64,000 nt of DNA, taken from contig CAYNUZ010000001.1 in the NCBI GenBank assembly GCA_964400385.1, positions 62 through 64,061 of the forward strand. Direction: 5' to 3'. Within the stretch, counting starts at the first letter, position 1. The number at the start of each line of letters is the position of its first letter. The translations under genes were made by a program, and so were the position numbers. Of this stretch, positions 1,471 through 47,105 are shown in pieces. The notes under the pieces are model-generated. The model saw only the letters and a list, made by a program, of their open reading frames with translations, was not told where the DNA came from and did no database searches. The DNA comes from an uncultured bacterium (GTDB lineage: Bacteria > Oederibacteriota > CAKKQC01).

Positions 1471-1478
1471 ATATGATA

Positions 1479-21199: not shown

Positions 21200-21257
21200 G
21201 ATGGCATCGCCGGGCGGATCCTGGACAAGATCCCATGTTCCCTTCGCCAGGTTGCAG

Positions 21258-22973: not shown

Positions 22974-22992
22974 GGATTCGAATTACCCCTCG

Positions 22993-24303
22993 CTACTTGA
23001 TGTGAACCCAGCGCTCAATATAGTCTCCGTTGGGAGATCGGACATAGAGTTCATCTCCAACGGGAATGCCGCCAACCTCAGGCGGCAGAATAACCCAGCA
23101 GCGAAGCTTATCGTGCTTGTCGTAGAAGGCATAGGCACCCCGGCCGCGCTCGGCCTTGATCGCCTTATCGTCGAGGATCGCCCAGGAGAGGTTATGCGGA
23201 TTCATGATCGAAACATCCAACACGATTTCCCCATTCGGGCCGATCTGGACCAGTTCAGCGTTCAGATTCAGATATGAATGCGCTGGATGGTCCACGTCTG
23301 GCAGATCCGGTCGGAACCAAGGCAAATTGTCGACACGTAAATGTCTCCCTGCCAAGGCCTTGGTTCGGTGCACTCGCCTCGCATGGATTTCGGCGCCATC
23401 AGGATGGTTGAAGTCAGGATCCTGGACCTTCAATTTGACCAACCCTTGCTTCACGTTGTCATCGCTATACTCCGCTATCAGGTCATCCAACGTCAGAAAG
23501 TCATCTGGATTTGCGGTCGAGCTGGGTTTGACCCTCGCGACCAGCTTTCCCTGATATCCTCCCGATATCTCTCCTGCAATCGTTCCGTCGTGGATGGCCA
23601 ATCTGATTCGCCCCAATCCATTTGGAAATCTGGTCTGTGCATCAAGGATTTGCTGCCAAGACCACCTTCCGATTTCCCTTCCATTCTGATCGAATCCGAT
23701 GATCTCGGGTCGCGCATGAGCGGGGAACATGGGAGAAGTTCCACCAGGAACCACGTACAGATTCTTGTTCTCGGCCACGAGCAGATATCCAAGTCCCGTC
23801 GGCAGGGTTCGGCTCCATGACACTCCGTCGATCAGCCGTCGGCACGTCAAAACGAGAACAGGAAGCTCGCCTGCGTCACGATTCCGCTCGACCTGCCCGA
23901 GGTAGGCAATGCTGTCCCCCAAAGAAACCAGCGACTCCACGTCGGCACCTCTCGGAATCGGATAGCGTGTCAGCGGAACCAATGGCTCCGGCCCGCCGCT
24001 TTGCGGCAGCCCCAAGTCGTCCAACCAGGCAATCCTTGGATCCAAGTCCGCTGGACGTCCGGTGCCCGTCCGTGAGGGACCGATTGACGCCGTCCACGGA
24101 TCGGGCCTCGGCGCACTCCTCCCTGTCGAGGATCGTGAGAGCGGCACTGTCTTCAATGAAAGCTTCGGCGCTGGCTTGACCGATCCGGTTGAGGTGCGGC
24201 TCGCAGCCGACCATGCGGAACCCGCAACGACCAATCCGACAGCGAGGATCCGCCCACTCAGGTGACGCATTCCAGCCTCCCTGTCAATCAGTTTCAATTT
24301 CAA
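22993..24303 (-). CDS. Hypothetical secreted protein (signal peptide), function unknown
   Basis: ORF of 436 aa; probable start at internal Met (MRHLSGRILAVGLVVAGSAWSAAS) with signal-peptide character; no recognisable catalytic motif. Confidence 0.45.
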   Translation of the reverse strand: MKLKLIDREAGMRHLSGRILAVGLVVAGSAWSAASRTSTGSVKPAPKLSLKTVPLSRSSTGRSAPRPDPWTASIGPSRTGTGRPADLDPRIAWLDDLGLPQSGGPEPLVPLTRYPIPRGADVESLVSLGDSIAYLGQVERNRDAGELPVLVLTCRRLIDGVSWSRTLPTGLGYLLVAENKNLYVVPGGTSPMFPAHARPEIIGFDQNGREIGRWSWQQILDAQTRFPNGLGRIRLAIHDGTIAGEISGGYQGKLVARVKPSSTANPDDFLTLDDLIAEYSDDNVKQGLVKLKVQDPDFNHPDGAEIHARRVHRTKALAGRHLRVDNLPWFRPDLPDVDHPAHSYLNLNAELVQIGPNGEIVLDVSIMNPHNLSWAILDDKAIKAERGRGAYAFYDKHDKLRCWVILPPEVGGIPVGDELYVRSPNGDYIERWVHIK

Positions 24304-25057
24304 CGCTCGTATGCTTAGTGTGCTTCACGATTTTCCCCGTGGGAGCAAACGCCTCGGTTTCCGTCTCATCGGGAAAATCGACTCCATCGTGTCTCCCGAT
24401 ACTCTTCACGGTCGTCCGAGACACGCAATCTCCCTTCTCGTTGTAGTGCTCGATGATGAGCGGCTGTCCGGTTGAGGCATCAACTGTTTCTTCCCGTCGG
24501 GCATACAGCTTGGCTTTCCCCTTTGGAACGAAGACCAAACCCTTCCTTGTTCCGAACAGATTGTCCCTCCCCTTTGCCCGCTGAATATCGAAACGTTGCC
24601 GCTCGGTCGAGGCATCGCCACCCTGGCGCTCAGAGAGCTGATCAAAGAACTCCTGTGCATTGGCAGGAAGAGTGCGGGACACCCACTGTCCATTCCGGGC
24701 AAGGAAGCTGAAGTGACCACTTTCGACCCTAAAATGCATCGGAATGGGATCAACCAACTCCACGTCGGCATCCATGCGATGCAAGGGGTCAGGATGCTCC
24801 CGGTTCTGCACGAGGAGCGTGTAGCGCATGTGGCTTGTCGTCGTGTGCCGTGGATTCCCATTTCGGGCAGGCCGATCGATGGTTGACTCAACTTCCGCAT
24901 GAATCCGCTTGACGTGGGCCATATTCTGGTGCCGCTTGGCGAGCAAATCATCCACCTCGTCCGCGCTGGCCCCGGCGGAGGCGAGGAGCAGGATGAAGGT
25001 GGCGCCCGCGATGCGGGCGACCTTCGCCCAGCAATCCATCAGAGCCCCCCCCGGCAC
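24284..25057 (-). CDS. Hypothetical secreted protein (possible LolA-like / lipoprotein-carrier-like fold), function unknown
   Basis: 257-aa ORF; likely start at MDCWAKVARIAGATFILLLASAGASA (about 25039) with signal peptide; 20-nt overlap with the downstream gene suggests co-transcription. Confidence 0.4.
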   Translation of the reverse strand: MPGGALMDCWAKVARIAGATFILLLASAGASADEVDDLLAKRHQNMAHVKRIHAEVESTIDRPARNGNPRHTTTSHMRYTLLVQNREHPDPLHRMDADVELVDPIPMHFRVESGHFSFLARNGQWVSRTLPANAQEFFDQLSERQGGDASTERQRFDIQRAKGRDNLFGTRKGLVFVPKGKAKLYARREETVDASTGQPLIIEHYNEKGDCVSRTTVKSIGRHDGVDFPDETETEAFAPTGKIVKHTKHTSVEIETD

Positions 25058-25421
25058 ATGGGCGCAAAGCTAACACGCGGAACGCTGCACCGTCAAGGCC
25101 GGGAATGTTGAAGATATTGCTCTTGCGAGTCTCCATTGGTTCATAGACAGACGCTGCTAGTGCAAGGGGTGTGCCATGTAGTGGAGGTGAAAAAAGCTTT
25201 CAGGAGAGGGTGGAGGCTGTCGAGGGTGCGGTGCAATCACGACACCCCTGCGGCGAAGTCGCCGCACTTGGGAGCTGAGGGAAACGCCCGATTCGCCTGC
25301 CGGTTGGTCGCCTCGGGCCCTAAGTTTGGCTCTTACGCGATCCCCGGCGTCCTTATCCTGCGCTGGAAAAGCCTCGTCCAGCCCCCGGGGCAGAATCGAA
25401 CACGAGAAAGTCCGGCCGCGA

Positions 25422-28400
25422 TTACTTCTTGCCGTGCGTCGAGCCTTGCCCGTTTCCTTGTCCGGCCCCGTCACGGCCTTCACCCTGACCATGGTCCCGC
25501 ACACCGTGATTGGTGTGATCTCCCGAGCCTCCCGCAGAGCCGCCGGAGCCCCCATCGGGGGAACCGGCACCCGGGGAGCTGGCCAGTCCACCGGCTCCGC
25601 TTCCGGAACCCGACGAAGCTCCGCCTGCAGCTCCCGCAAAGGTGCGCCCACCCAGGCCGCCCTCATGATCATCCTCCTCCGGACCGGGAATCGTCAGGGG
25701 GATTCTCCGGCGGTCAACGACGCCGGCTGTTTCGGCCACGAGGATCACCATGTACCGGCCAGCAGGCTGCCGGACGCCTTCGCCGTCCCGGCCGTCCCAC
25801 CAGACGGCGTTGGGTCCCGCCTGTCCGCCGGCCCTCGCCTCGCCCGATTTGAAGACCGGTGTCACGAGTCGGTTGCTGCGCACATCGGCGACCGCCCACG
25901 CGACACTCGCGTTACGGCGAAGATCATAGTCCAATCTCCCGACGAACAAGCCGCCGGGGATGGCCGGTGGCGCCACCGTGGCCGACCGGATCAACGCCCC
26001 CGCACCCGCCGCGAGCGAGGGCGCCGCCGCGCTGCCGTCCAGGAAGAGCGCCATGACGGACTCGGAGACCCCGCCAATCTGGTCCTCCACCACCAAGCGG
26101 ACGGAATAGAACCCGGCGGTGAACCCTGCCGTCTTCCAGGATCCGAGCGGACCGTTCCAGACCGGGACTGCGGACTCCACCAGGACCGTCACCCCATCCG
26201 GTCCGCTGATCTCAAGCCGATAGCTCTTGAAATAGGCATCCGCGGCCCGTCCCGTAAACGTGAGCGTCTCACCGATGAAGACCGACGCCGTGACTACCGG
26301 TCCGAGCAGCTCCGCGCGCGGCGCGGTCTCGTCCACAGGATCGGCGGGCACGGCGATGACCCGCCGACCGTGATTATTGTCAGTGTCGGCAGCGTACAGA
26401 TGAGTCCCGCCCTGGTCCAGGGCCAGGGCAGACGGATGCCGGAATTCGCCATCGGCGGTTCCCTGCTCCCCGATTTCCTCAAGGAAGGTGCCGTCGAGGT
26501 TGAACTGCTCGATGCGGTTTCTGGTTGGATCTGACACGTAAATCGCCGGCGGCGTCGAGGCCAGACTGACGGCCACCCCGGTGGGTTGCTTGAGCCCCCC
26601 GCCGGGGGCATCTTCGCCGGTGAGCACGAAACGCGTGGTGCCATCCGCCGCGAAGGCCTGGATGCGGTCGTTTCCGGAATCGGCGATCCAGAGCACGCCG
26701 GCATCGTCGACACAAATCTGAGCCGGACTGCGGACCATCCCGGGTGCGGTCCCCTCGGTCGCGATCATCCTCAGAAAGATCCCATCGGCCTCGAATTCCT
26801 GCACCCGATTATTGCCGGTGTCGGAGACCCAGAGATGCCCGTCAGCGTCGAAGGCCAGCCCGCCCGGCTGCCGGAGCTTTCCGACTGCCTTTCCGGGCCC
26901 GCCGAACGACGTGAGATACGACCCGTCCTCATCGAAGATTACAATTTCATTGCGCATCCGGTCGGCGACGAAGAGGCGACCATCCTCCGCTTCAGCGAGC
27001 GCCACCGGCGCCACCAAGTCGCCCGGCAGCGTCTTGCCGGAATGCGGCTCGCCGATCACGCTCAGGGGGTGCGCCAACGCATCGAGGCGGACGACACGAT
27101 GCATGCCGGTATCCACCACGTACACGAAGCCGGCCCGATCGCGGGCGATGCCCTCTGGGTGGAGGTGCTCCGAATACGCGAAGGTCCGCCACCACCAGCT
27201 CGGTATTTGCGAGTTGAAGTATTGGGTACGGGCCTTGTTGTTATTGAAGAGGAGAATCAATTCATAGGCATCCCGCGAGAACCCGGCCGTGTCCTTGACT
27301 CGCAGCCTGAAGACGATGGCGCCCTGCTTCGTCAGAATTTTTTGACTGAAGAACCCGAATCCGCAATTTGAAGCCAACCCTCTGGCTGTCGTGCCACTCA
27401 GGCCGGTCGGTGAGAAAACTATCCCGTCGTATGAGAAATCAATGTTCCATGAAAGCAGAGTTCCGGGAGCGTCAGCATATGCCAGACCGTAGAACTGCAG
27501 GTTGCCCGAGTGCCGCAGTGCCGCATGCAGGCCGAAGGGAATGGCCAGCGCCTCCTTCGTAAACCAGCTATCCTTGCCGGCTGTGGTGATCGCACGGACA
27601 GCGTAGTAATAACCGGCACCCGTCGTGATACCCATGTCCGAATAGGAATTGGTGAGGGAGGACCCTGCAAACTTGATACGTGGGTTTCCAAGCTTATTGT
27701 GCCAAAGTTGGCCTTCCAGACCCTGGACGTGCTGGGCAGCGTACTGGGGCCCCTCGCCCCACGCGTGCTCCTCACTCATCCGGTAGACTTCGTAGCGCGC
27801 CACGGGCGACTTTGAGGCGGCGGGTGGATTCCATGTGAGATCCACCCGGTTGTACCCGAGGGACACCTGGAGATTGGACGGCGGATCGACGCTCCTCGGC
27901 CCATACACAAAGCCGCCATGCACGAAAAGTTGATCGTTCGCGATCGCAATTCCACCTGGCGCCCCAATTCCACCCAGAGACGCCCCTCCACGTTCATCCG
28001 GGGTCCAAATGGTGTCCCCGGAGGCAAGATCCTCCGTCGTGACGAATCTCGGGGAGCTGACATCGGTTCCGAAACGATACATAAACCCGTTCCCTTCAGA
28101 ACCGACTCCACCGCTTTGCCCGAAATATCGTCGCGAGCTTATGCTGCCGAGGAGTCCGCCGGTCGCTTGGTCAAACTGACTCGGCACTGTTTGGTCACCT
28201 GAAAAACCGACGCTCCCGGCCTTTTCAACACAGTTCGCCAGATAGGAATTGATTCCACCTGTTGGTGCAAGCTGGCCGAAGAACATCCGCGTCCCATAAA
28301 CCCGAGAGTTTGCCAGTGCGTCTATGTTGAGACCCGTCTTCGACCACGTCCAGGTTCCGGTCATGGCATCCACGGCGACGGATCCGATAGAGCCGGGCCC

Positions 28401-31355
28401 AGAGATGCCCAATTTCACTGGCGCGTAAAACAGTCGCCCGTTGTCGTAGGCCAATCGAACCACATTACCCGGAATCGGCTTGGTCCACACCAGCGCGCCG
28501 GTGAGGGCATTCAAGGCCCGGATCTTCACGGGCTGAACAGTGCCAAACACGGTGTTCAGCACGTAGACCAATCCGCCGCCCACGACGGGGGGACTGCTTG
28601 ACGAGCCGAATCCCGACTGCCAGAGGATCGCCCCCGTCGTCAGACTGTAGGCGACCGTTCCGCCGCCATAGAATCCGGTCACAAACAAGGTCGACGAATC
28701 GATCGAAAGAAGACCGGGATTTCCGGCCGTCGGATTTCCGGTAATTGGATTGTAGAAGCGAATCTGCGCACCGGTCGCGAGGTCGTACCCGCGGATCCCA
28801 CCACCGACTCCGTTCGGAGTCGCCAGTGAGACAACAATCTGTCCTTCGCCGGCGGCCATGAAACCCGGGAATACAGGACCGCTCTTCCTCCAAATGATGG
28901 TTCCGGTCGCGTTATCTCTCGCAACGAGATCGAACCGCGGTGAGAAGACACCCGGCACTTGTGGTTGCGGAGGCCCAGGAGGGACCTCGAGCCAGTAGGA
29001 ACGCGCGCCCACGACGATCGGAGAATGGGCGCGGGTGATCGTCGCAGTCCACATCAATTCAAGCGGCGGCGTGAGCCCTGTCGGGCAGCTCTGCGCAAAT
29101 GTGTGCTGAGCATCGTGCCCCCACATCGGCCAGTCGCCGCCTGGATTCAAAGTCAGGCAGCCGGAGGGCGTGACGGGCGGCGCGCACTGCTCGCCCCCCA
29201 CCACCACCATCCCCCCGTTCGTCGCCACGCCCGCCGCAAAGTCCACCGGCACCGGCAGCGGCCCTGACCCAAACCCCTCGTCCTCCACCGTCCCCAGCGG
29301 CCGCGCCGCCACCGTCGCGCCACCCGCCAGCATCGTGTGCGTCACCCCCAGCGAGTTCACCAGCCCCGACACCAACCCCCGCCGCGGCGTCCCCATCGTC
29401 CCCGTCACGCCCCACGTGGTCAGATCCCCGCTGCTCACAAACTCGATGTCCGCCACTTCGCCCGCCCCGTTCGCCCCGCCGTAGACCGTCAGCGCCACGA
29501 ACCCCACGCCCGTGGTCCCCACCACCGTCCCCGTCGCATTCATCCGCGCGTTCACCAGCTGCGGCACCGGCGTCGCGCTCCCGTACGCTGCCGGCATCAC
29601 CCCGCCCGCCGCTCCTCCCACCCAGCTGTTCGTCACCGGGTCATAGATGTTCACCTCGTTCGTCGCGATCGGCGACCCCGCGGTCCCCGTCGCCCCGCCG
29701 ATCGCCCACAGCCCCGTCCCCGGATCGCTCAGCAGCAGCACCCCCGCCCGCGCCGTCGGCAGCGGCGGCAGGGCCGTCCACGTGTTCGTCGCCGGGTCGT
29801 ACGCATCCACCTGCGCCGAGGGATTCCCGCCTGCATCCCACCCTCCGGCCACCACCACCCGTCCCCCAAACTCCGCCACCCCCACCATCCGCCGCGGCGT
29901 CGCCAGCGTCGTCGCCACCGTCCACGTCCCCGTCCCCGGACACGCCGACCCCGCCGCCGGCAGCGCCAGCGCCATCACGTCCGGCCGCAATGCCCCCGCC
30001 GCATCCCGACCGCCCGCCACATACACCACCTGGCTCCCCGCCACGCCCACCACCATCGCCGCCCCCGCCTCGCTCCGCCCCTCGCCCGCCGGCAGCGACG
30101 GCCCCGCGCACCACCCGTTTGTCGCGTCGCTGAAATACTGCACCCCCGTCCCATACACCGGGTCCACCGCCACGCCCGTCGCACACGTCGCCGGTCCCGG
30201 AGGGGGCACTGGCGTGACGGGCGGCGCGCACTGCTCGCCCCCCACCACCACCATCCCCCCGTTCGTCGCCACGCCCGCCGCAAAGTCCACCGGCACCGGC
30301 AGCGGCCCTGACCCAAACCCCTCGTCCTCCACCGTCCCCAGCGGCCGCGCCGCCACCGTCGCGCCACCCGCCAGCATCGTGTGCGTCACCCCCAGCGAGT
30401 TCACCAGCCCCGACACCAACCCCCGCCGCGGCGTCCCCATCGTCCCCGTCACGCCCCACGTGGTCAGATCCCCGCTGCTCACAAACTCGATGTCCGCCAC
30501 TTCGCCCGCCCCGTTCGCCCCGCCGTAGACCGTCAGCGCCACGAACCCCACGCCCGTGGTCCCCACCACCGTCCCCGTCGCATTCATCCGCGCGTTCACC
30601 AGCTGCGGCACCGGCGTCGCGCTCCCGTACGCTGCCGGCATCACCCCGCCCGCCGCTCCTCCCACCCAGCTGTTCGTCACCGGGTCATAGATGTTCACCT
30701 CGTTCGTCGCGATCGGCGACCCCGCGGTCCCCGTCGCCCCGCCGATCGCCCACAGCCCCGTCCCCGGATCGCTCAGCAGCAGCACCCCCGCCCGCGCCGT
30801 CGGCAGCGGCGGCAGGGCCGTCCACGTGTTCGTCGCCGGGTCGTACGCATCCACCTGCGCCGAGGGATTCCCGCCTGCATCCCACCCTCCGGCCACCACC
30901 ACCCGTCCCCCAAACTCCGCCACCCCCACCATCCGCCGCGGCGTCGCCAGCGTCGTCGCCACCGTCCACGTCCCCGTCCCCGGACACGCCGACCCCGCCG
31001 CCGGCAGCGCCAGCGCCATCACGTCCGGCCGCAATGCCCCCGCCGCATCCCGACCGCCCGCCACATACACCACCTGGCTCCCCGCCACGCCCACCACCAT
31101 CGCCGCCCCCGCCTCGCTCCGCCCCTCGCCCGCCGGCAGCGACGGCCCCGCGCACCACCCGTTTGTCGCGTCGCTGAAATACTGCACCCCCGTCCCATAC
31201 ACCGGGTCCACCGCCACGCCCGTCGCACACGTCGCCGGTCCCGGAGGGGGCACTGGAACGGAAAGGGCGACTGAGGACAGGGCACATGCGCAGATGGAAA
31301 CCAGGAGGATGGATGTCTCGCGACGGAACCGACGATCAGAGGACGTAACGAGCAT
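25422..31355 (-). CDS. Giant (1977 aa) secreted NHL-repeat / Kelch-repeat beta-propeller protein with FlgD-like Ig domain and Gly/Ser-rich C-terminal tail; carries an internal 348-aa perfect tandem duplication
   Basis: Signal peptide (ILLVSICACALSSVALS). Kelch-like blades (VYVAGGRDAAG..., GGRVVVAGGWDAGGNPSAQVDAYDPATNTWTALPPLPTARAG); NHL repeats (GHLWVSDTGNNRVQEF, GVLWIADSGNDRIQAF, IYVSDPTRNRIEQF, LYAADTDNNH). C-terminal FlgD-like block (AVWWDGRDGEGVRQPAGRYMVILVAE) followed by a low-complexity GGxSGxG tail ending HGKK. Confidence 0.8.
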   Translation of the reverse strand: MLVTSSDRRFRRETSILLVSICACALSSVALSVPVPPPGPATCATGVAVDPVYGTGVQYFSDATNGWCAGPSLPAGEGRSEAGAAMVVGVAGSQVVYVAGGRDAAGALRPDVMALALPAAGSACPGTGTWTVATTLATPRRMVGVAEFGGRVVVAGGWDAGGNPSAQVDAYDPATNTWTALPPLPTARAGVLLLSDPGTGLWAIGGATGTAGSPIATNEVNIYDPVTNSWVGGAAGGVMPAAYGSATPVPQLVNARMNATGTVVGTTGVGFVALTVYGGANGAGEVADIEFVSSGDLTTWGVTGTMGTPRRGLVSGLVNSLGVTHTMLAGGATVAARPLGTVEDEGFGSGPLPVPVDFAAGVATNGGMVVVGGEQCAPPVTPVPPPGPATCATGVAVDPVYGTGVQYFSDATNGWCAGPSLPAGEGRSEAGAAMVVGVAGSQVVYVAGGRDAAGALRPDVMALALPAAGSACPGTGTWTVATTLATPRRMVGVAEFGGRVVVAGGWDAGGNPSAQVDAYDPATNTWTALPPLPTARAGVLLLSDPGTGLWAIGGATGTAGSPIATNEVNIYDPVTNSWVGGAAGGVMPAAYGSATPVPQLVNARMNATGTVVGTTGVGFVALTVYGGANGAGEVADIEFVSSGDLTTWGVTGTMGTPRRGLVSGLVNSLGVTHTMLAGGATVAARPLGTVEDEGFGSGPLPVPVDFAAGVATNGGMVVVGGEQCAPPVTPSGCLTLNPGGDWPMWGHDAQHTFAQSCPTGLTPPLELMWTATITRAHSPIVVGARSYWLEVPPGPPQPQVPGVFSPRFDLVARDNATGTIIWRKSGPVFPGFMAAGEGQIVVSLATPNGVGGGIRGYDLATGAQIRFYNPITGNPTAGNPGLLSIDSSTLFVTGFYGGGTVAYSLTTGAILWQSGFGSSSSPPVVGGGLVYVLNTVFGTVQPVKIRALNALTGALVWTKPIPGNVVRLAYDNGRLFYAPVKLGISGPGSIGSVAVDAMTGTWTWSKTGLNIDALANSRVYGTRMFFGQLAPTGGINSYLANCVEKAGSVGFSGDQTVPSQFDQATGGLLGSISSRRYFGQSGGVGSEGNGFMYRFGTDVSSPRFVTTEDLASGDTIWTPDERGGASLGGIGAPGGIAIANDQLFVHGGFVYGPRSVDPPSNLQVSLGYNRVDLTWNPPAASKSPVARYEVYRMSEEHAWGEGPQYAAQHVQGLEGQLWHNKLGNPRIKFAGSSLTNSYSDMGITTGAGYYYAVRAITTAGKDSWFTKEALAIPFGLHAALRHSGNLQFYGLAYADAPGTLLSWNIDFSYDGIVFSPTGLSGTTARGLASNCGFGFFSQKILTKQGAIVFRLRVKDTAGFSRDAYELILLFNNNKARTQYFNSQIPSWWWRTFAYSEHLHPEGIARDRAGFVYVVDTGMHRVVRLDALAHPLSVIGEPHSGKTLPGDLVAPVALAEAEDGRLFVADRMRNEIVIFDEDGSYLTSFGGPGKAVGKLRQPGGLAFDADGHLWVSDTGNNRVQEFEADGIFLRMIATEGTAPGMVRSPAQICVDDAGVLWIADSGNDRIQAFAADGTTRFVLTGEDAPGGGLKQPTGVAVSLASTPPAIYVSDPTRNRIEQFNLDGTFLEEIGEQGTADGEFRHPSALALDQGGTHLYAADTDNNHGRRVIAVPADPVDETAPRAELLGPVVTASVFIGETLTFTGRAADAYFKSYRLEISGPDGVTVLVESAVPVWNGPLGSWKTAGFTAGFYSVRLVVEDQIGGVSESVMALFLDGSAAAPSLAAGAGALIRSATVAPPAIPGGLFVGRLDYDLRRNASVAWAVADVRSNRLVTPVFKSGEARAGGQAGPNAVWWDGRDGEGVRQPAGRYMVILVAETAGVVDRRRIPLTIPGPEEDDHEGGLGGRTFAGAAGGASSGSGSGAGGLASSPGAGSPDGGSGGSAGGSGDHTNHGVRDHGQGEGRDGAGQGNGQGSTHGKK
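29165..31256. repeat. Perfect in-frame tandem direct duplication, 2 x 1044 bp, inside the Kelch-repeat region of gene 25422..31355
   Basis: ORF-track pairs are identical in sequence and offset by exactly 1044 nt: 29337..30311 vs 30381..31274, 29647..30528 vs 30691..31386, and 29641..30459 vs 30685..31287. The junction strings gtcgccggtcccggagggggcactgg are at 30187..30212 and 31231..31256. The host protein contains the 348-aa block VPPPGPATCATG...GGEQCAPPVTP twice verbatim. Confidence 0.9.
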
Positions 31356-31608
31356 AGGCGCAACCCTAACACTCGGAAGAAAGTAAAGTCAAGGGAATTA
31401 CTATTGAAACTGCTGTTCTCGCGACATGATCTTGCGCAGCCGCCCAGGTGGGTGATGGTCAGGGAGGAACGTCCCACCCTGTGATATGCGTTACAATCAA
31501 GCTCTATCAACAGATTCTCATGGGCCAGAATATGCGTAGGGGGGTGGGCGGCATGTCTGCCATGGTTGGCAAAGGGCACCAGAAGATGCCGCTATACTCC
31601 TTAACATA
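31356..31608. promoter_or_regulatory. Divergent intergenic region (lower GC) between the giant NHL/Kelch gene and the DUF2079-like gene; probable divergent promoters
   Basis: About 250 nt non-coding, noticeably AT-richer than flanks (e.g. aagtaaagtcaagggaattactattgaaactgctg). Flanked by start codons on opposite strands (31355 minus, 31609 plus). Confidence 0.3.
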
Positions 31609-33219
31609 ATGAAGCGGGCGATCGGGAAGACAGCGGCCGGCGTGGGCTGGGCCGTCCGGATCGCCGCGGGCGTAGCGCTGGCGGGCTGCCTCCTGCTGCT
31701 GCCCCTCATCATTCTCAATCTCACCCAGCACGGGCCGCTGGCGCGGCTCACGTTCCGGAAGGTGACCCAGCTCGGCTGGCTCCTGGGCGCGGTGTTCGTG
31801 CTGGCGCGGCCCCGGCCGGTGAAGTACTTCCGCGAGGTCGCACGCAAGGCCGCCCGGGTGCTCGGCCACCCCCGGGCCTTCCCGATCACGGCGGCGGCAA
31901 TGCTGGTGGTGATGGTGGGCGCGGCGCTCACCGAATACCTCTCGTTCAATGCGTGCTCGGACGACTTCGGGATGATGGACGAGCCGCTGGCCGGCCGGGG
32001 CGGCGGGCCGTTCATGTTCACCGCGGTGTTCGGATACGGGCTCCTCCAGCAGCACTTCTATCCCTCGATGGTCCTGCTGATGCCCCTGCGCCGGCTCGTG
32101 GACACCCCGCTCGTCACCGTGCTGGCCCAGGCCTTGTTGATGTGGGCGGCGGCCTTCCCGCTGCGGGCGCTGGTGCGGCGCAAGGGGCTCCCGGCGTGGC
32201 TCCCCGCCTTCGCCTGCCTCATCGTCTTGAACCACCCGATCGTGACCCGGTCGCTCATCTACCTCGTCCATCCCGAGACCGCCGAGCCCTTGCTGGTGCT
32301 CACCGCGCTGTGGGCGGTGCACACCCGCCGGACTCCCCTGTACTGCCTCGCGGTCGCGCTCCTGCTGGGCATCAAGGAAGACGTCGGGCTGTACATGGCG
32401 GGATTCGGAGTCTACCTCGCGGTGGCGCACGGCCGGTGGCGGCTGGGCGCGATCACCGCGGGCGTGGCGCTGGCGTGGCACGTCTTCGCGGTCCATGTCG
32501 GGATGCCGTACTTCGGCGCGGTGCCCGGCGAAGTCCGGTTCTTCGGGCGGTGGAGCCACTGGGGCGCGACCAATGCCGGCGTGCTGGTCGGGTGGGCCAC
32601 GCACCCGCTCGAGGTGCTCCGGATGCTCACCGGCAGCCAGCAGGTGCTCCTGTTCGCCGGCCTCGGCTTCCTGCCGTTCATCACGCCGTGGGGCTGGCTG
32701 GCGTTCGCGGCGCCGTGGCTGGTGAACGCCACCAGCGGGCTGGGGGTGCAGGCCACGTACGAGAACTACTACGGCATCCCGGTCGTGGCCTTTGCCCTGG
32801 CCGCGGCCGTGGACGGCGTGCGCAGTCCCGGCTTCAAGCGGCTGATGGCCAGCCCGCTGGCGCCCCTGGCGGCGGCCGTGGTGGCCTTCCTGAACATCGC
32901 GCACCAGCCCTTCGAGCCGATCCCCCGTAACCGGGCGGCGGTGCTGGCCGAGGTGGCGAAGGTGCCGCACGGGGAGCAGGTGCAGGTGATTCCCGCGCTG
33001 TATTCGTACGGCGGGTATTGGGAGGGCAAGACGCCCATCTCCTCGAGCCGCACTTTGCAGCGGCCGCTGGCGGACCGGTGGATCATCCTGCGCGACGGCC
33101 CGACCACCTGGCCGTACCAGCCGGGCGAGCCGACCCGCATCGCCCACCGGCTCATCGCATCGGGCCGGTACCGGGACCTCTCCACCACCCCCGGCGTCTT
33201 TATCCTGCGCCGGAAGTAG
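31609..33219 (+). CDS. Polytopic membrane protein, GT-C-like (resembles DUF2079 family of predicted membrane glycosyltransferases)
   Basis: 536 aa with at least 10 hydrophobic helices throughout the N-terminal 400 aa and a soluble C-terminal 100 aa. Overall organisation is like the DUF2079/GT-C families. The family assignment has not been verified. Confidence 0.45.
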   Translation: MKRAIGKTAAGVGWAVRIAAGVALAGCLLLLPLIILNLTQHGPLARLTFRKVTQLGWLLGAVFVLARPRPVKYFREVARKAARVLGHPRAFPITAAAMLVVMVGAALTEYLSFNACSDDFGMMDEPLAGRGGGPFMFTAVFGYGLLQQHFYPSMVLLMPLRRLVDTPLVTVLAQALLMWAAAFPLRALVRRKGLPAWLPAFACLIVLNHPIVTRSLIYLVHPETAEPLLVLTALWAVHTRRTPLYCLAVALLLGIKEDVGLYMAGFGVYLAVAHGRWRLGAITAGVALAWHVFAVHVGMPYFGAVPGEVRFFGRWSHWGATNAGVLVGWATHPLEVLRMLTGSQQVLLFAGLGFLPFITPWGWLAFAAPWLVNATSGLGVQATYENYYGIPVVAFALAAAVDGVRSPGFKRLMASPLAPLAAAVVAFLNIAHQPFEPIPRNRAAVLAEVAKVPHGEQVQVIPALYSYGGYWEGKTPISSSRTLQRPLADRWIILRDGPTTWPYQPGEPTRIAHRLIASGRYRDLSTTPGVFILRRK

Positions 33220-33246
33220 GGTTCCCGGCCGGCGGGGCCAGGCGGC

Positions 33247-35319
33247 TCAGTGTACGGGGATCGGCCCGAGAAACACGACCTTCCCGGGGAAAACCCGGAC
33301 CTGATCAAACGTAAGCCTGGGTTTCGTCAGGGCTTCGGGCGCGAAAATATCAAGGTTCGGCAAACGCCCGATCCACAATGACGGGATCCGGATATCCAGA
33401 AGGCCCCACCCTACCCCGGTCCACCAGAGCTGCAGACCGCCATGCCAATGCGCAAGGACCGCGCCCAATCGGAGCGGAACTCCCCACAGGCGGCCCGCAA
33501 GGACGATTCGGTCCTTTTCGAGGACCAGATGGGGATCACGCAGGCGTCCCAGGAGGGACCGCAGCGGCCGGGAGAAGATCCGCACCCCGGCAGCGTGCGG
33601 ATGGGCGCCCACGCCCCGGATCAACAGGTCGAGGTCCGCTTCGGCAATCGAGCCTCTCCCCACCCTGACCCGTTCCATCGTCCACCCGGTGGCCGACGCG
33701 CTGAGGCCGACCCTCTCCCGGACCCGGCCCAACCCCACCGCCAGGTCCGAGACCGGCAGGTCCAGGTCAACGCCGTCCGCGTGCAGGATCACGTGGGCGC
33801 GCTCGGCATTGAAGCCCGCGAGGAGGGTTCCGTCCCGCCACATTCCGAGTGACACCTCCAGCCGGGAAGCGCCCAGTTGCGACCTGAGCATCCCGGCAAG
33901 ATTCCTCCGGAGAAGCTCCCGATCATGGATCTCATTACGGCGCAGGAGCACCTCGGCCGACCCGTCCGCCAGCGGCCACCGCTGGAGCTCGCTATACAGG
34001 CGATCGGTCACGTGCGGCCGGGTGGACCGGGTGACCGCGAAGTCGGCCAGCCCCGGCCCCTCGTCCTGCGGCATGACGTGGACTCCGAGCCCCAGCCGGG
34101 CCAGCTCGAACTCGAAGGTGTGCTGGTTGAGGTCCGCCTCCTCGGCATTCACGACCAGCTCCGCGCCGGGCCACGCCCGGACGGCCAGCTCCTTGGCCAC
34201 CTCCGCGTGGGGCCACGCCGCGTCCGACGGCGGCGCCACCCGGACCGCGACCACCACGAACTGGACCGCGGCCAGCGCCGTCAGGCCCCACGCAGCCCAC
34301 CGCCGCCTCGCCGGGGCGGTGATCCACTGGACCGCCGCCCCCACCCCCACCAGGATGAAGGGCAGCGCCGGCATGAAGTACCGGGGCTGCTTGTTGCGCA
34401 GGAGGGTCACGATGACCAGCGGGACCACGACGGTCCACGCCCACCGGCGGGTCGCGGGCGCCCGCACCAACGCGACCGCCCCGGCCACCGCGAGCAGGAC
34501 CGCGGGCCACCCGATCATGGAGGGCAACGCGACCGGGTAGAACAGGATCGCGCCCCAGCTCGCCAGCGGCGCGTCCACGATGTCCGATCCCGTGTATGCC
34601 GCGTGGAAGAGGGCGTGCCGGAGGAAGTTGAAGTTCGGCAGGTACCACCCCGCGCACACCACGAATCCCAGCGCGACCGCCTTGGCGGCAACCCCCCGGC
34701 GTGCCCGGGCCCCGGCCCGGGAGCCGGCCAGGCTGAGCGCCAGCGGGGCGAGCGTGTAGAAGGGGAAGGTCCACTTGACCAGCATCCCCAGCCCGATCAG
34801 GACCCCGACCCCCACCCACCGGCGGCCGCGCCACGGCGACTCGCCCAGCGCCCACGCGGTGGCCGCGACCAGCGCCGCCAGCGGCATGTCGTACATGAAC
34901 TGGCGCGACTCCCGGGCGACCAGCGGCGCTCCCACCACCAGCGCCGCCCCGGCCAGCGCGGCCAGCCGATCGCCCCGGTGCACCGCCAGCCCCAGCCTGT
35001 AGGTGGCCGCGAGCAGGAGGAGCAGGAAGGGCAGCATGGCGGTGGTGAACCCGTCCGCGGTGTTGCCACACACGCCGCCCGCCGCCGCACCCACCAGCGC
35101 TACCAGCGGCGGGTAGTACCGGTGCTCGTCGGAGAAGTGCACCACCCGCTCCCGCCACGTCATCCGGCGGTAGTGCTCCGCGGAGGTCAGGTGGACCGAC
35201 TGGTCCCAGGCCTGCGGCCGGTGGTCGGCGCGCAACCACCAGAGGTCGGTCGCCACGGCCACCGCGCCCACGGCCACCAGCCCGAGCAGCGCGCGGGTAC
35301 GGGGGGTCATGCGGTTCAT
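33247..35319 (-). CDS. GT-C fold membrane glycosyltransferase (PMT_2/ArnT-like, GT39/GT83-type) with about 280-aa C-terminal soluble domain
   Basis: Within ORF 33247..35658 the ATG at 35319 (MNRMTPRTRALLGLVAVGAVAV...) lies 2 nt after the upstream gene's stop. The N-terminal 400 aa are polytopic with an acidic first-loop motif (WDQSVHLTSAEHY) and typical GT-C helices (KWTFPFYTLAPLALSLAG). The C-terminal domain is unassigned. Confidence 0.55.
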   Translation of the reverse strand: MNRMTPRTRALLGLVAVGAVAVATDLWWLRADHRPQAWDQSVHLTSAEHYRRMTWRERVVHFSDEHRYYPPLVALVGAAAGGVCGNTADGFTTAMLPFLLLLLAATYRLGLAVHRGDRLAALAGAALVVGAPLVARESRQFMYDMPLAALVAATAWALGESPWRGRRWVGVGVLIGLGMLVKWTFPFYTLAPLALSLAGSRAGARARRGVAAKAVALGFVVCAGWYLPNFNFLRHALFHAAYTGSDIVDAPLASWGAILFYPVALPSMIGWPAVLLAVAGAVALVRAPATRRWAWTVVVPLVIVTLLRNKQPRYFMPALPFILVGVGAAVQWITAPARRRWAAWGLTALAAVQFVVVAVRVAPPSDAAWPHAEVAKELAVRAWPGAELVVNAEEADLNQHTFEFELARLGLGVHVMPQDEGPGLADFAVTRSTRPHVTDRLYSELQRWPLADGSAEVLLRRNEIHDRELLRRNLAGMLRSQLGASRLEVSLGMWRDGTLLAGFNAERAHVILHADGVDLDLPVSDLAVGLGRVRERVGLSASATGWTMERVRVGRGSIAEADLDLLIRGVGAHPHAAGVRIFSRPLRSLLGRLRDPHLVLEKDRIVLAGRLWGVPLRLGAVLAHWHGGLQLWWTGVGWGLLDIRIPSLWIGRLPNLDIFAPEALTKPRLTFDQVRVFPGKVVFLGPIPVH

Positions 35320-35320
35320 C

Positions 35321-38101
35321 TTATGGAACGCCGGGCGCCGTGGGCCGGGTCCGGTCCTGCCGCAGCCGGTACGGCGTCCCGAACGTGTACCGGGGGTCCG
35401 GCGTCCGGGCCAGCCCCTCGCTGCGCTCGGGTCTGCCGAGGCCGGCCAGGCCCCCCACACCGCCACCCAGTGAGAACACCTCGAGCACCAACTCCTGGCG
35501 CTCCTGATGCTCGCGGGTGCGCACGTACCGTACCCCCACCGCGCCCTCGAGCAGCGACCCGAACTCAAAATTGCTGATCTTGACCTCCGCCAGCGCCTCC
35601 GCCCCGTACGCGTACTGGGTCCGCGCCGCGTCCCCCGCGGCCAGGTCGAAGAACGCACCCAGCGAGAGGTCCTCCAGGTACCCGCTGAACCACCAGATAC
35701 CCTCGCGCAGCGGGATGAGCGGCGCCGTGAAGTCGACGGCCGCCTCCGCGCCCCGCCCCGCGGCCAGCCCGTCCTGGTAGCCCCGGATGCGCGCGAAATC
35801 CGAGTCGGGGTTGTCCCGGTCAGCGAACCCCGCCCCCTGGACCAGCACCCGGCTCATATAGATGTATTGGTCCAGCACCCCCTGCCCGACCACCCCCGTG
35901 CGGTCCACGGCCGACCCCCAGCCCTGCCGCTCGAACGGCACACTCGCGCCCACCGAGAGCGCCGTCCCCGGCCACGAGAACGCCGTGAGCACATACGGAT
36001 CGCCTTCCCGCCGGTTCCGGTCGTCGAACGCGCCCGCGTGCGCGCCCACCGCCAGCTCCGAGAGCCCCGGCGAGAGCCGGAGCACCAGCGGGTACGCCAC
36101 CGCCCCGTCCCAGGACGGCGTGCCGAGGGTCGAGACCGAGGCGGCCGCCTCCAGGGGCGGCGCGGGGGTCCCCACCGCGCTCGCCGAGACCGCCGGCCGG
36201 TGGTCCCGGAAGTCCCACGCCGGGATGAGCGCGTAGTTGAAGACGTGCCCGATCGCGTCCGCACCCCCGAACGCAATGCCTGCGATCCGGCCATCCAGGC
36301 TGGCGAACGGCATGTGTAGCGCGGTGGGCGCAAGCGTCCGCAGATCATCCCCGAATCCGCCGCGCGCCACCCGCGTGCGGTCCACGGGAGCCACCGGCGG
36401 GGTGATCGGCCGATTGTCCGGCACCGCCACCGCCGCCGGGGTGCGCGGCTTGCGGTAGAGGTCGTTGCCCGCCGCGGTCAGCCCCACGTAGTAGAGGGTT
36501 CCGGCCGCGGCATCCACCGCCGGCCAGTTGGCATACCCGCCCCGGGTCAGCTCATAGACCGTCCCGCTCGCGGGATCCAACTCCTTGATGCCATAGCTCC
36601 CCTTCCAGTTCGCCATGAAGACCACCCGGTCCCCGACGAGCGCCGGGTGCGCCTCCACCCACGGCGTGTCGATCAATGGGGTGACGGTCCCCGTGGCAGG
36701 ATCCAGCCGGTACAGCGAGAACTGGCGCCAGTCCGGCCGCGCCGTCACCACCACCTGGTGGTCGTCGGCGGCGAACTCGTCCACCTGCATCGCCAGCGAG
36801 GCGAGCCGGGTGTGCTGCTGTGACGCCAGGTCGTAGGCGAAGAGGTCCGACCCGAATCCGTCGGTGCGGTCCACGGAGTACACCACCCGGCCGTCGGGCA
36901 GCACCCCGAACCCCCGGATCGGCCGCCGGAACAGCTCCCGGTCCCGCCCCGACGCCAGGTCGTGCGCGCGCACGATGCTGGTGAACCCGTACCCCAGTGA
37001 CGCGACGTTCGCGTGGCCGCCCTCGATCTCCGTGACGGCGTAGTACAGGACGCCCCCGCGCACCGCGAGCCCCGCATGGATCCCGGTGGTCGTCCCCACC
37101 AAGATCCGCTCCTCCCCGGTCCGGAGGTCCCGCGCCCAAATCTCATTGAAGGCATCCGCCGCGAACGCGCCGGTCTTCTGGACGTAGGACCGGACATAGA
37201 ACAGCGTGCCGCCGTCCACCGTGAGGCTCTCGATCGTCCAGCCGTGGGACGTCACCTTCTCCCCGTCCATCTTCCAGTCCTGGAACCGGCCCGAGCACGA
37301 CCGCGACCACGCGTACCAGAGGTCCGGGATGGACTTCCCGTAGACCTTCTCCGCCGCCAGATCAATGCCCCACCCCGGCACCAGCGGCGAGAGGTACGCC
37401 AGCAACGACCGGTCGTGCCGGTGGTAGAACGCGGCCAGCTTCTCCGGCCCGTAGGTCCTGGCCAGCCACCCCGTGAATTCGGCGCCCGCCAGGTAGTAGT
37501 AGTCCAGCGGATACGCCACCGGAGCGAAGGTCGCCTGCATGAGGTCGGGGAACTCCCCGTTGCGCAGCCCCGCTGCCAGGTACGCGTCGAAGAACCCGTC
37601 GTTCAGCCGGCCGCTGTACGGCGAGTACGAGGACTCCTCGTACACCGCCAGCCCCTCCGCCATCCACGGCGGCACCCACCAGCTCGGGTTGAGCAGCGAC
37701 CCACCGAACCACGCGATCCCCCCGGGAATCCCGCCCCGGTACGTGAGATGGAGCATGTGGGTGTACTCGTGGATCGTGAGCCCCGCCCACCAATTCTCCT
37801 CCGGCAACAGCCCCGCCCCCGGCGCCGAGGTGTACAAGTGGATGTTCATGTTGACCGGGTCTGTCCCGCCGTTCGAGATCGTGCCGGCCTCGTCAATCAC
37901 GATCGGCACCCGCTCCCGGTGGCTGTCCGTGAGCTTCTCCACCTGCGGCCGGGTCCACTCCAGCGCGTCCAGCGCGGCCCACGCCTCCGGCTCATGGCCG
38001 TCGGCATAGAACACCGTGAAGTGCTCGGTCTTGAGCGTCCGCCATCCCGCCGCGGCAGGAGCCGTCCAGCACAGCCACACTGCGAGCGCCAGCCGCTTCA
38101 A
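35321..38101 (-). CDS. Secreted zinc metalloprotease (HEXXH) fused to TolB-like (PD40) beta-propeller repeats and a beta-rich C-terminal domain
   Basis: HEYTH zincin motif (AGLTIHEYTHMLHL) about 120 aa after a signal-peptide-like segment (LKRLALAVWLCWTAPAAAGW). PD40-like blades (LFAYDLASQQHTRLASL, FSLYRLDPATGTVTPLID, GIKELDPASGTVYELTRGG). The C-terminal 300 aa have alternating hydrophobic residues. The start is probably TTG at about 38101, overlapping the upstream stop as TTGA; the 5' part of ORF 35321..38305 overlaps the upstream gene. Confidence 0.55.
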   Translation of the reverse strand: MKRLALAVWLCWTAPAAAGWRTLKTEHFTVFYADGHEPEAWAALDALEWTRPQVEKLTDSHRERVPIVIDEAGTISNGGTDPVNMNIHLYTSAPGAGLLPEENWWAGLTIHEYTHMLHLTYRGGIPGGIAWFGGSLLNPSWWVPPWMAEGLAVYEESSYSPYSGRLNDGFFDAYLAAGLRNGEFPDLMQATFAPVAYPLDYYYLAGAEFTGWLARTYGPEKLAAFYHRHDRSLLAYLSPLVPGWGIDLAAEKVYGKSIPDLWYAWSRSCSGRFQDWKMDGEKVTSHGWTIESLTVDGGTLFYVRSYVQKTGAFAADAFNEIWARDLRTGEERILVGTTTGIHAGLAVRGGVLYYAVTEIEGGHANVASLGYGFTSIVRAHDLASGRDRELFRRPIRGFGVLPDGRVVYSVDRTDGFGSDLFAYDLASQQHTRLASLAMQVDEFAADDHQVVVTARPDWRQFSLYRLDPATGTVTPLIDTPWVEAHPALVGDRVVFMANWKGSYGIKELDPASGTVYELTRGGYANWPAVDAAAGTLYYVGLTAAGNDLYRKPRTPAAVAVPDNRPITPPVAPVDRTRVARGGFGDDLRTLAPTALHMPFASLDGRIAGIAFGGADAIGHVFNYALIPAWDFRDHRPAVSASAVGTPAPPLEAAASVSTLGTPSWDGAVAYPLVLRLSPGLSELAVGAHAGAFDDRNRREGDPYVLTAFSWPGTALSVGASVPFERQGWGSAVDRTGVVGQGVLDQYIYMSRVLVQGAGFADRDNPDSDFARIRGYQDGLAAGRGAEAAVDFTAPLIPLREGIWWFSGYLEDLSLGAFFDLAAGDAARTQYAYGAEALAEVKISNFEFGSLLEGAVGVRYVRTREHQERQELVLEVFSLGGGVGGLAGLGRPERSEGLARTPDPRYTFGTPYRLRQDRTRPTAPGVP

Positions 38102-46170: not shown

Positions 46171-47105
46171 CGCTTCCGGGCGATCACGCCCATGGAGTCG
46201 AAGGTGTTGATGTACAGCGGCAGCCGGTCCAGCCGGACGAGCCGGCACAGCCGCATCAGGACGCCCACCGTGCGCGGCGCGTATCCCGTCATCCGGCTCA
46301 GCCAGTACCCGAAGGTGAACCGCCGGCCGATGTGCCGCACCGACCGGACCTCAAACCCCACCTTGGTCAGCAGCGCGGGCAGCGTGGCCCCCGAGAAGTA
46401 GTAGAGGTGCGCGGCCCGCAGCCCCCACCACCACCGGCCCATCAGCCGGGCCACGGGGGCGCCGATGTCGGGCGTATATATATAGAAGGCGCCGCCGGGG
46501 CGCAGGATCCGGTGGATCTCGGTCAGCACCCGGGTGGGGTCCGGCAGGTGTTCGATCACGTCCAGCAGGGTCACGGCATCGAACGACCCGTCGGGGAACC
46601 TGGCGCTGTCCACCGACCCCTCGATCACGTCCAGCTTGAACACCTCCCGGGCGTGGCGGACCGCCCACTTGGACGGCTCGACCCCCCGGGCCTGCCAGCG
46701 CGGGGCGGCGGCGGCCAGCAGCACCCCCACCCCGCACCCGATATCGAGCAACCGGCCGGGCGGCACCTCCCGCTCCAGCATCCGCACCACCCGGCGGGCC
46801 GAGGCCAGCCGGCCGGCGAACTGCTCGAGGTACAGGGGGTCCTCGGAGTCCTGGTACGACGACTGGATGAACTCCCACCGCTGCCGGGGGTGCAGCCGGG
46901 CCAGCCCGCACCCGGTGCAGGTCACGACCCGGCCGTACCCGCCGTACTGGTCGGTGGTGGCCACGAACTTCTCCTCCGCGTGGAGGTCGCCCTGGTTCTC
47001 GAACCGGACCCGGTAGCCGGTCGCCCCGCACGCGTCGCACGCGGGCTCTTCGAGGACCGGACGGGACGGCTGAATCACGGTGTATTTTATGGGCTGCGCG
47101 CGCAC
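46167..47105 (-). CDS. Class I SAM-dependent methyltransferase with N-terminal Cys4 zinc-ribbon
   Basis: CDACG...CTGCG zinc ribbon; SAM motif LLDIGCGVGVL; motif II/III DAVTLLDVIEHLPDP ... LRPGGAFYIYTP. Typical of sugar/glycan-modifying methyltransferases in polysaccharide loci. Confidence 0.65.
   Translation of the reverse strand: MRAQPIKYTVIQPSRPVLEEPACDACGATGYRVRFENQGDLHAEEKFVATTDQYGGYGRVVTCTGCGLARLHPRQRWEFIQSSYQDSEDPLYLEQFAGRLASARRVVRMLEREVPPGRLLDIGCGVGVLLAAAAPRWQARGVEPSKWAVRHAREVFKLDVIEGSVDSARFPDGSFDAVTLLDVIEHLPDPTRVLTEIHRILRPGGAFYIYTPDIGAPVARLMGRWWWGLRAAHLYYFSGATLPALLTKVGFEVRSVRHIGRRFTFGYWLSRMTGYAPRTVGVLMRLCRLVRLDRLPLYINTFDSMGVIARKR

Follow-up and report, generated by a model that had tools for sequence, protein, structure and literature searches.

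A gene encoding a 1977-aa multi-propeller protein carries two copies, identical at every base and arranged head to tail, of a 1044-bp segment predicted to span a whole Kelch propeller together with its proline-rich linkers, and this arrangement is very probably the result of a real, evolutionarily very recent intragenic tandem duplication.

Extent of the repeat and its host gene

Direct comparison of the window (the whole 64-kb stretch of DNA analyzed) at an offset of 1044 nt showed that 29167..30212 equals 30211..31256 over an uninterrupted 1046 bases, with no mismatch and no N, a match that cannot have arisen by chance. The repeat region, 29167..31256, consists of 2 x 1044 + 2 nt, the shared 2 nt being GG on the plus strand. 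The first-pass annotation had described two identical head-to-tail 1044-nt copies, and this was borne out; of the span that it had given, 29165-31256, the end is correct, but the start lies 2 nt too early (29167). The three ORF pairs that it had placed at offset 1044 were recovered as well (29337/30381 and 29647/30691 on the plus strand, 29641/30685 on the minus strand), and its junction strings, 30187..30212 and 31231..31256, are indeed identical, because both lie inside the 1046-nt run.

This is the sole direct repeat of at least 40 nt in the window, and recurrence of 31-mers in the window is likewise confined to the 1044-nt repeat. Tandem Repeats Finder returned no rows for the window, because the period of 1044 exceeds the longest one allowed, 500. 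We also considered a 510/534-nt sub-repeat as a sign of half-unit duplication and rejected it, since what matches is a stretch of just 46 nt, at 76%, where blades 2 and 5 begin (TWTVATTLATPRR and TWGVTGTMGTPRR).

The period corresponds to 348 codons, and the host ORF remains open throughout; the ORF, its translation and the Pfam assignments all agree with the earlier claim of a duplication in frame within a 1977-aa Kelch/NHL protein. The features of the locus are as follows.

25422..31355, minus strand: host gene, 1977 aa (ORF, translation; Pfam Kelch_1/Kelch_6, PQQ_2, fn3, NHL, FlgD_ig)
31257..31355, minus strand: signal-peptide-like N-terminus, codons 1-33, MLVTSSDRRFRRETSILLVSICACALSSVALSV, a basic N-region and then a hydrophobic core, assigned by eye from the sequence
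30213..31256, minus strand: copy 1 of the 1044-nt unit, aa 34-381, PVPPPGPATC...EQCAPPVT, predicted to form one six-bladed Kelch propeller with Pro-rich linkers (exact identity, structure model, Foldseek)
29169..30212, minus strand: copy 2 of the 1044-nt unit, aa 382-729, with every base the same as in copy 1
30210..30215, minus strand: novel joint from the duplication, in a codon-level view of the boundary; coding strand ...GTC ACG / CCA GTG..., protein ...APPVT / PVPPPGP...
29167..29168, minus strand: 2-nt microhomology, CC on the coding strand and GG on the plus strand, common to the unit start and the sequence directly after copy 2
27906..29168, minus strand: unique post-repeat sequence, aa 730-1150, linker and PQQ/BamB-like propeller (Pfam PQQ_2)
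31609..33219, plus strand: divergently transcribed neighbor, a DUF2079 multi-pass membrane protein (Pfam)

The repeat begins at the codon right after codons 1-33 of the host gene, and the domain order of the protein is a signal-peptide-like N-terminus, two Kelch propellers, a PQQ/BamB-like propeller, fn3, an NHL propeller, a FlgD-Ig-like region and a Gly/Ser-rich tail. At the joint between the units, the coding strand reads GTCACG followed directly by CCAGTGCCC, and homology at the breakpoints is limited to 2 nt, as seen from the length of the identity run (1046, not 1044) and the boundary codons, CCA and CCC. The locus thus shows what would be expected of a tandem segmental duplication by illegitimate (microhomology) recombination, namely, direct copies placed head to tail, one novel joint (ACG/CCA) and 2 nt of shared sequence.

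An identical protein is present in NCBI (P0001), encoded on a 64,222-bp contig. The signal-peptide-like N-terminus and the domain content suggest a surface protein, as the first-pass annotation had called it; searches of Pfam and NCBIfam recognized no motif in the host protein that would anchor it to the cell surface, and its C-terminus is the Gly/Ser-rich tail. Third-position GC content (GC3) is 0.91 in the unit compared to 0.64 in codons 1-33 and about 0.66 in 27906..29168. A chimeric contig was rejected as the source of this step, given that one 1977-aa ORF crosses both composition boundaries and that contigs from the Logan assembly are identical to the window. On the far side of the N-terminus, a minus-strand ORF at 31507..33147 is the shadow of the DUF2079 gene.

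The repeat in an independent k=31 assembly

The first-pass annotation had left two readings open, a recent duplication and an assembly artefact; the first of these is supported, whereas the second is made very unlikely by contigs that break k-1 nt inside both boundaries of the unit. These contigs come from Logan, an independent k=31 assembly, here of run SRR12313479, which contains the same DNA as the window. Logan keeps all 31-mers distinct (PMC12424806) and discards k-mers occurring once. The 31-mers of the junction were not seen there, because a junction unitig would measure ~60 nt and Logan reports only contigs above 150 bp; the evidence consists of the ends of the flank contigs, the left one of which was recovered by look-up of the DUF2079 gene.

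31227..31256: end of Logan contig SRR12313479_54723, its last 30 nt (k-1); the contig equals 31227..34419 of the window
29167..29196: end of Logan contig SRR12313479_20034, its last 30 nt (k-1); 15422..29196 was compared and matches exactly

Both flank contigs end exactly 30 nt (k-1) inside the unit, at 31227 on the left and at 29196 on the right. At 31226..31256 lies a 31-mer with two successors, A leading into the flank and C into the junction, and SRR12313479_54723 stops there; the end of SRR12313479_20034 at 29196 was predicted beforehand and found at the first attempt, using the cut gene product (aa 721-1977). Ends at these positions imply that the unit has two contexts per side in the reads, and a unit end with two successors and a unit start with two predecessors, combined with a single context for each flank, make up the graph of a tandem repeat. 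We also rejected a zero-copy (deletion) allele as the reason why the contigs break, since the flank contigs would then end at the unit boundary rather than 30 nt inside it. The short-read graph fits any copy number of at least 2, as well as a mixture with one-copy cells.

An assembler could have created a false duplication of a segment present once in the genome, for example, from an unmerged contig-join overlap or an over-traversed loop. Zero divergence in a high-GC, repeat-rich gene is the typical setting of such errors, for which tandem repeats are a known cause (PMC6868369). A single copy, however, would give an unbranched k=31 path from flank through unit to flank, and no such passage was found in the Logan k=31 contigs, both of which stop k-1 nt inside the unit. 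Moreover, the artefact would need to keep the frame (a 1 in 3 chance), with its ends in inter-domain linkers and enclosing exactly one propeller, and because the breakpoints share only 2 nt, the joint cannot have come from a k-mer-based mis-join of the two linkers in the graph. An assembler-made duplication is thus very unlikely. Run SRR12313479 is probably the same library as the source of the NCBI contig, and library-level artefacts would thus be common to both. A literature search turned up nothing on this run. Quite improbable, too, is a unit that is single-copy at this locus and recurs elsewhere, be it at a different locus, in the allele of another strain or as a transient excised circle, with the public contig mis-threaded into a tandem. 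The Logan contig ends prove two contexts per side without identifying the second, and a one-copy chromosome accompanied by a circular unit would yield the same graph; but the public contig contains an explicit joint of unit end and unit start, which graph assemblers would be expected to emit only where the reads contain its k-mers. The window has the unit nowhere else, the unit was found in no other protein of a representative library of 1.84 billion, and a 1-kb circle lacking an origin would not be maintained at the coverage needed for assembly.

Fold of the unit and its relatives

In the two copies, Pfam detected Kelch_6 (84.4 bits, cut-off 25.3) and Kelch_1 (78.5 bits, cut-off 20.1), each in two stretches, one per copy. 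Modeled with AlphaFold, the 348-aa unit (pLDDT 81, pTM 0.83) aligned in Foldseek over 300-316 columns to the complete six-bladed Kelch domains SAKe6, KLHL12 and Keap1 (E about 1e-16, target TM 0.76-0.82). Judged by this model, the unit is not a fragment but comprises all of a six-bladed Kelch propeller, with Pro-rich linkers at either end, in agreement with the earlier view that the protein had gained a complete propeller module. In the single-unit model, N-terminal strands occupy residues 13-36, and the C-terminal 27 residues have pLDDT <50. Modeling both copies together gave a poor result (pLDDT 57), and we assume that the two propellers fold independently. The blades of the unit are fully differentiated: local alignments of blade to blade were short and weak, and no DNA offset of 30-800 nt exceeded 46% identity.

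No orthologue of the host protein was found in any searched collection; the exact protein is a singleton, and the next-best protein match shows 34% identity over 13% of the query. Exact look-ups of the full-length protein gave no record. Contigs of GTDB genomes and JGI metagenomes contained only relatives of the adjacent domain, at 23-32%, and the 348-aa unit used as a query retrieved generic Kelch blades only. Accordingly, the searched protein and contig collections yielded no orthologue that would show a one-copy ancestor.

Searching related giant Kelch/NHL proteins for internal repeats by self-BLAST of 300-aa chunks, we found propeller-sized repeats that form a continuum from 30 to 100% identity. 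Such repeats reach 92-100% identity in P0023, P0003, P0408 and P0367, measured at the protein level, whereas the identity in the host gene is at the nucleotide level. Near-identical propeller repeats in other large Kelch/NHL proteins suggest that whole-propeller duplication is a usual mode of growth in this class. P0023, P0003, P0408 and P0367, along with P0326, resemble the host protein in being large secreted-type proteins with propeller arrays, and several of the five have propeller-sized repeats at offsets of 281-466 aa, with protein identities of 97-100%; none is an orthologue, and they match the unit over blades 2-3 only, at 30-45% identity.

Origin, age and copy number

As the event behind the duplication, RecA-independent illegitimate recombination or replication slippage is most likely, in which two CCN-rich (proline-codon) linker sequences sharing just 2 nt would have served as partners. 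Since 1044 is divisible by three and the segment has both of its ends in linkers, the product would be a secreted multi-propeller protein that begins with a pair of identical Kelch propellers in place of one. The doubled propeller could provide twice the valency or reach at the presumed ligand-binding end. Once formed, two identical 1-kb repeats would be a substrate for homologous unequal crossing-over, through which the copy number can expand or collapse.

An older duplication, held identical by gene conversion (concerted evolution), appears unlikely. Recombination commonly homogenizes tandem identical repeats in surface proteins (Periscope proteins, PMC9704523), and the same could apply here, but all 1044 nt are identical as far as each breakpoint, some 348 synonymous sites among them, whereas diverged edges are usual after conversion tracts, and searches of proteins and contigs found no orthologue with two diverged copies. 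A recent event and gene conversion differ in age only, and one sequence cannot separate them. As for copy number, two copies are the minimum consistent with the reads, and the true number is two or more. A true array of at least three copies, of which the short-read assembly shows the minimal path through the loop, is unlikely: the 1044-bp exact repeat exceeds usual short-read inserts, the graph should be the same for any copy number of at least 2, and MpAFP offers a precedent of collapsed identical repeats (PMC4083281); on the other hand, evidence of extra copies is absent, and a single duplication is expected to give the two-copy state first. Rather unlikely is a copy-number-variable locus with alleles of 1, 2 or more identical Kelch propellers, where unequal crossing-over would tune the valency or reach of the binding end as in a Periscope-like length switch whose unit is the whole 348-aa propeller. 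If that were true, the GC3 step (0.91 vs about 0.65 on both sides) would be the mark of a propeller that was acquired separately, as a cassette.

The duplication can be compared with two groups of known systems. Identical in-frame DNA tandem repeats occur in Periscope-type surface proteins such as Rib/alpha C, SasG/Aap and Sgo0707 (PMC9704523), and the RII region of the M. primoryensis ice adhesin has about 120 identical 104-aa repeats (PMC4083281). Shared with these are in-frame tandem repeats of (near-)100% DNA identity, here 100% over 1044 nt, in a large exported protein, and the expectation that copy number changes by homologous recombination. The likeness lies in repeat identity; repeat-number variation belongs to the Periscope proteins, whereas the searches here found no orthologue or second strain. 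In addition, the unit here is a predicted 348-aa globular six-bladed propeller, in contrast to their small, high-stability, rod-forming domains of 50-165 aa, there are two copies only, and these are located at the N-terminal, presumably ligand-binding end, whereas Periscope repeats form a stalk beneath the functional domain at the N-terminus; no anchor to the cell wall or outer membrane was recognized in this protein. In the second group, beta-propellers have been amplified recently at the level of the blade, with Kelch among the lineages (Pereira and Lupas 2022, PMC9218822; Afanasieva et al. 2019, PMC6805158). They share the fold class with the unit, and repeats of near-zero divergence show ongoing amplification, but those proteins copied single blades and contain near-identical ones, whereas here a finished whole propeller with six differentiated blades was copied.

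The repeat is biologically unsurprising and opens no long-standing question. On the methodological side, contig end positions in a fixed-k public assembly such as Logan can show, without reads, whether or not a suspected repeat is real. The doubled propeller may mean more binding sites for the protein, or it may be a transient polymorphism. The repeat of the host gene is a zero-divergence case of a common process, the ordinary growth route for such proteins. It offers a clean snapshot of domain accretion, in which a complete, differentiated beta-propeller was copied in frame in a class of multi-propeller proteins, and illustrates one step by which giant multi-propeller proteins could be built.

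A perfect tandem repeat within the Kelch/NHL gene

A self-comparison of the window with a 1044-nt shift revealed 1046 unbroken identical bases (29167..30212 = 30211..31256), which defines a repeat region at 29167..31256 consisting of two 1044-nt copies and two additional common bases (GG on the plus strand), with zero mismatches and zero N. The perfect tandem identity and the end point claimed in the first-pass annotation thus stand, but its start, 29165, lies 2 nt too early. This region is the sole direct repeat of at least 40 nt in the 64 kb, and recurring 31-mers in the window are confined to it; Tandem Repeats Finder gave no report for the window because the 1044-nt period exceeds its maximum of 500. 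All three pairs of ORFs spaced 1044 nt apart that had been described are present, and the duplication is indeed in frame, with both copies lying inside one 1977-aa Kelch/NHL ORF.

Features of the host gene and protein (domains from Pfam)
25422..31355 (-): host ORF, 1977 aa, containing the whole repeat
30213..31256 (-): copy 1 of the unit, aa 34-381
29169..30212 (-): copy 2 of the unit, aa 382-729
Each copy of the unit: Kelch motifs
About aa 900-1010: PQQ/BamB-like propeller
aa 1157-1262: fn3
About aa 1397-1680: NHL propeller
Near the C-terminus: weak FlgD-Ig-like match

Boundaries of the unit (coding strand; protein)
Signal peptide / copy 1: ...TCC GTT / CCA GTG CCC...; ...ALSV / PVPPPGP...
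Copy 1 / copy 2: ...GTC ACG / CCA GTG CCC...; ...APPVT / PVPPPGP...
Copy 2 / rest: ...GTC ACG / CCC TCC GGC...; ...APPVT / PSGCLTLN...

By reading of the sequence, the host N-terminus is signal-peptide-like, a basic stretch being followed by a hydrophobic core, and the unit starts at the next codon. Both unit edges fall within Pro-rich linkers, and homology between the breakpoints is limited to the dinucleotide CC. Each unit contains four Cys (positions 10, 35, 91 and 343), with one close to each terminus. NCBIfam yielded only NHL-type matches to the host protein, all below threshold.

Genuine duplication or assembly artefact

Logan provides one public assembly per sequencing run at k=31, in which singly seen k-mers are dropped and all 31-mers in contigs are distinct (PMC12424806). 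The assembly of run SRR12313479, which also contains the PdxJ of the window, probably shares its library with the public contig. At this k, a single-copy region should yield an unbranched contig, whereas the contigs flanking a repeat should stop k-1 = 30 nt inside it. On the left flank, contig SRR12313479_54723, reached via the DUF2079 gene (31609..33219), matches window 31227..34419 exactly and, because the repeat ends at 31256, stops exactly 30 nt inside it. For the right flank, the end was forecast beforehand at 29196, with a cut gene product of aa 721-1977; this product was found at position 2 of contig SRR12313479_20034 (26,028 bp), the compared portion of which matches window 15422..29196 exactly. 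At these points of the public contig, the 31-mer at 31226..31256 is followed once by A (flank) and once by C (junction), and the one at 29167..29197 is preceded by G in one place and by T in the other. The flanks of the repeat each have a single context. The Logan contig ends are the graph of a tandem repeat.

These observations largely exclude the alternative raised in the first-pass annotation, namely, a false duplication made by the assembler, for example, from an unmerged overlap. The independent flank contigs stop inside the repeat on both sides, the repeat length is divisible by three, and both breakpoints lie in linkers enclosing exactly one domain; furthermore, the breakpoints share just 2 nt, and therefore no k-mer mis-join could make the joint. 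A zero-copy deletion allele was also considered as the cause of the contig breaks and rejected, because under it the contigs would end at the boundary itself and not 30 nt into the unit, and because each flank has one context. The Logan evidence consists of flank ends; the junction unitig should measure some 60 nt, and only contigs longer than 150 bp are reported. Self-comparison, reading frame, domain fit and contig ends together support a genuine tandem duplication, with a copy number of two or more; any number of copies from 2 upwards, or a mixture of one- and two-copy cells, gives an identical short-read graph. Further Logan contigs end at ~3169 (extrapolated from contig size), 34419, 56660 and 60268, which we attribute to strain variants or repeats elsewhere in the metagenome, since no 31-mer of the window recurs at these positions.

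Composition and genomic neighborhood

The window is a compositional mosaic (GC 0.55-0.74). GC3 is 0.91 in both copies of the unit (29169..31256), 0.64 over the 33 signal-peptide codons and about 0.66 in the 400 codons that come after copy 2. Over the 600 codons after the repeat it ranges from 0.55 to 0.70, the step between the repeat and the rest of the gene (25422..29168, 31257..31355) being sharp. This step suggests that recombination may have assembled the host gene from parts that differ in history.

In the neighborhood of the host gene, at least five genes for GT-C-like membrane glycosyltransferases cluster around large secreted-type proteins; the enzymes might glycosylate these proteins, for example, at Pro/Thr-rich linkers.

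Neighboring genes
31609..33219 (+): DUF2079, GT-C-like, divergent neighbor of the host gene
33247..35658 (-): PMT_2, GT-C-like
38098..39867 (-): TMEM260-like, GT-C-like
44242..46248 (-): PMT_2, GT-C-like
49777..51264 (+): DUF2142/PMT, GT-C-like
2639..21199 (-): giant ORF, 6186 aa (Logan: 5939 aa), adjoining the host gene

The 546-aa ORF at 31507..33147 (-), rich in Arg, His, Pro and Gln and without a domain match, was dismissed as a shadow frame; the real gene opposite it encodes the DUF2079 membrane protein, also predicted by the Logan gene caller. The giant ORF encodes several PQQ/BamB-like propellers and fn3, Big_13 and FlgD-Ig-like (Ig-like) domains, and resembles the host protein only across a C-terminal module some 190 aa long (30% identity), possibly for export or anchoring. 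Directly downstream of it is an IS200-like Y1 transposase domain (Y1_Tnp in Pfam, 1479..2507, -), beside a PrmA/PRMT-like methyltransferase ORF (487..1785). Near the host-gene region, DsbD with N-terminal, transmembrane and thioredoxin domains (52534..54555, +) is followed by an AhpC/TSA-type redoxin (54596..55261, +), a pair that would fit a periplasm managing disulfides. A small HicB-like antitoxin gene (2513..2713 of Logan contig L011; about window 57556..57756, -) neighbors GNAT acetyltransferase and AadA-like nucleotidyltransferase genes. PdxJ shows 66-69% identity to Burkholderiales/Pseudomonadota proteins, with closest matches at 75-81%, and the host organism is an uncultured bacterium, probably Gram-negative.

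Whole-propeller duplication and its likely consequence

The 348-aa unit was modelled with AlphaFold2 (85 homologues; mean pLDDT 81, pTM 0.83), with low confidence in the final 27 residues; a joint model of both copies (pLDDT 57) was too poor for use. In the PDB, Foldseek matched the unit to whole six-bladed Kelch domains over 300-316 aligned columns (E about 1e-16, target-normalised TM 0.76-0.82), including designed SAKe6 proteins, KLHL12, Keap1 and KLHL3. On the basis of this model and these alignments, the duplicated block is predicted to encode one entire six-bladed Kelch propeller. For the unit, amplification of blades as described in nascent propellers (PMC9218822) was rejected, its six blades being well differentiated from each other; what was copied is a finished propeller, not single blades.

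No orthologue of the host protein for copy-number comparison was found in NCBI, GTDB genomes, JGI metagenomes or 1.84 billion representatives. The exact protein (NCBI record P0001) is a singleton from a 64,222-bp NCBI contig, the second-best match has 34% identity across 13% of the query, and the GTDB and JGI scans returned relatives at 23-32% only. An exhaustive HMMER scan of the 1.84 billion representatives yielded no whole-unit match in another protein, the remaining matches covering blades 2-3 only (30-45% identity).

When 259 large Kelch/NHL proteins, relatives retrieved in the searches, were cut into 300-aa pieces and each piece was compared with its own protein, propeller-sized internal repeats emerged in all but four (255/259), with best identities running continuously from about 30% to 100%, such that whole-propeller duplication is a routine growth mode of these proteins. 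The 1044-nt case is the zero-divergence end of this range. Four unrelated NHL/Kelch proteins carry repeats at 97-100% protein identity and offsets of 281-466 aa, indicating at the protein level that recent duplication of whole propellers is recurrent.

Recent propeller repeats in large Kelch/NHL proteins non-orthologous to the host protein
P0023: offset 291 aa, 274/277 residues identical
P0003: offset 281 aa, 237/239 residues identical
P0408: offset 292 aa, 246/249 residues identical
P0367: offset 466 aa, 296/296 residues identical

Among named classes, Periscope proteins come closest, these being surface proteins with near-identical DNA repeats that grow and shrink through homologous recombination (PMC9704523); the Marinomonas ice adhesin has 120 identical 104-aa repeats (PMC4083281). 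Both resemble the host gene in DNA-level repeat identity, but the units repeated there are small stalk domains that form rods; the host unit, an N-terminal globular propeller of 348 aa, falls outside the structural definition of Periscope-type repeats.

One illegitimate event would have produced the joint between two linker-coding stretches rich in CCN, through either microhomology-mediated joining or slippage during replication. As in bacterial tandem duplications generally, RecA-dependent unequal crossing-over can act on two direct repeats that are identical over 1 kb, and the array is therefore expected to be unstable, collapsing to one copy or expanding. Given the absence of any difference across 2 x 1044 nt, the origin would be very recent, or gene conversion may still be homogenising the copies. 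The resulting domain order is two identical N-terminal Kelch propellers, then the PQQ-like and the NHL propeller; in a protein that is presumably secreted, the likely effect is greater valency or reach of the presumed binding module.
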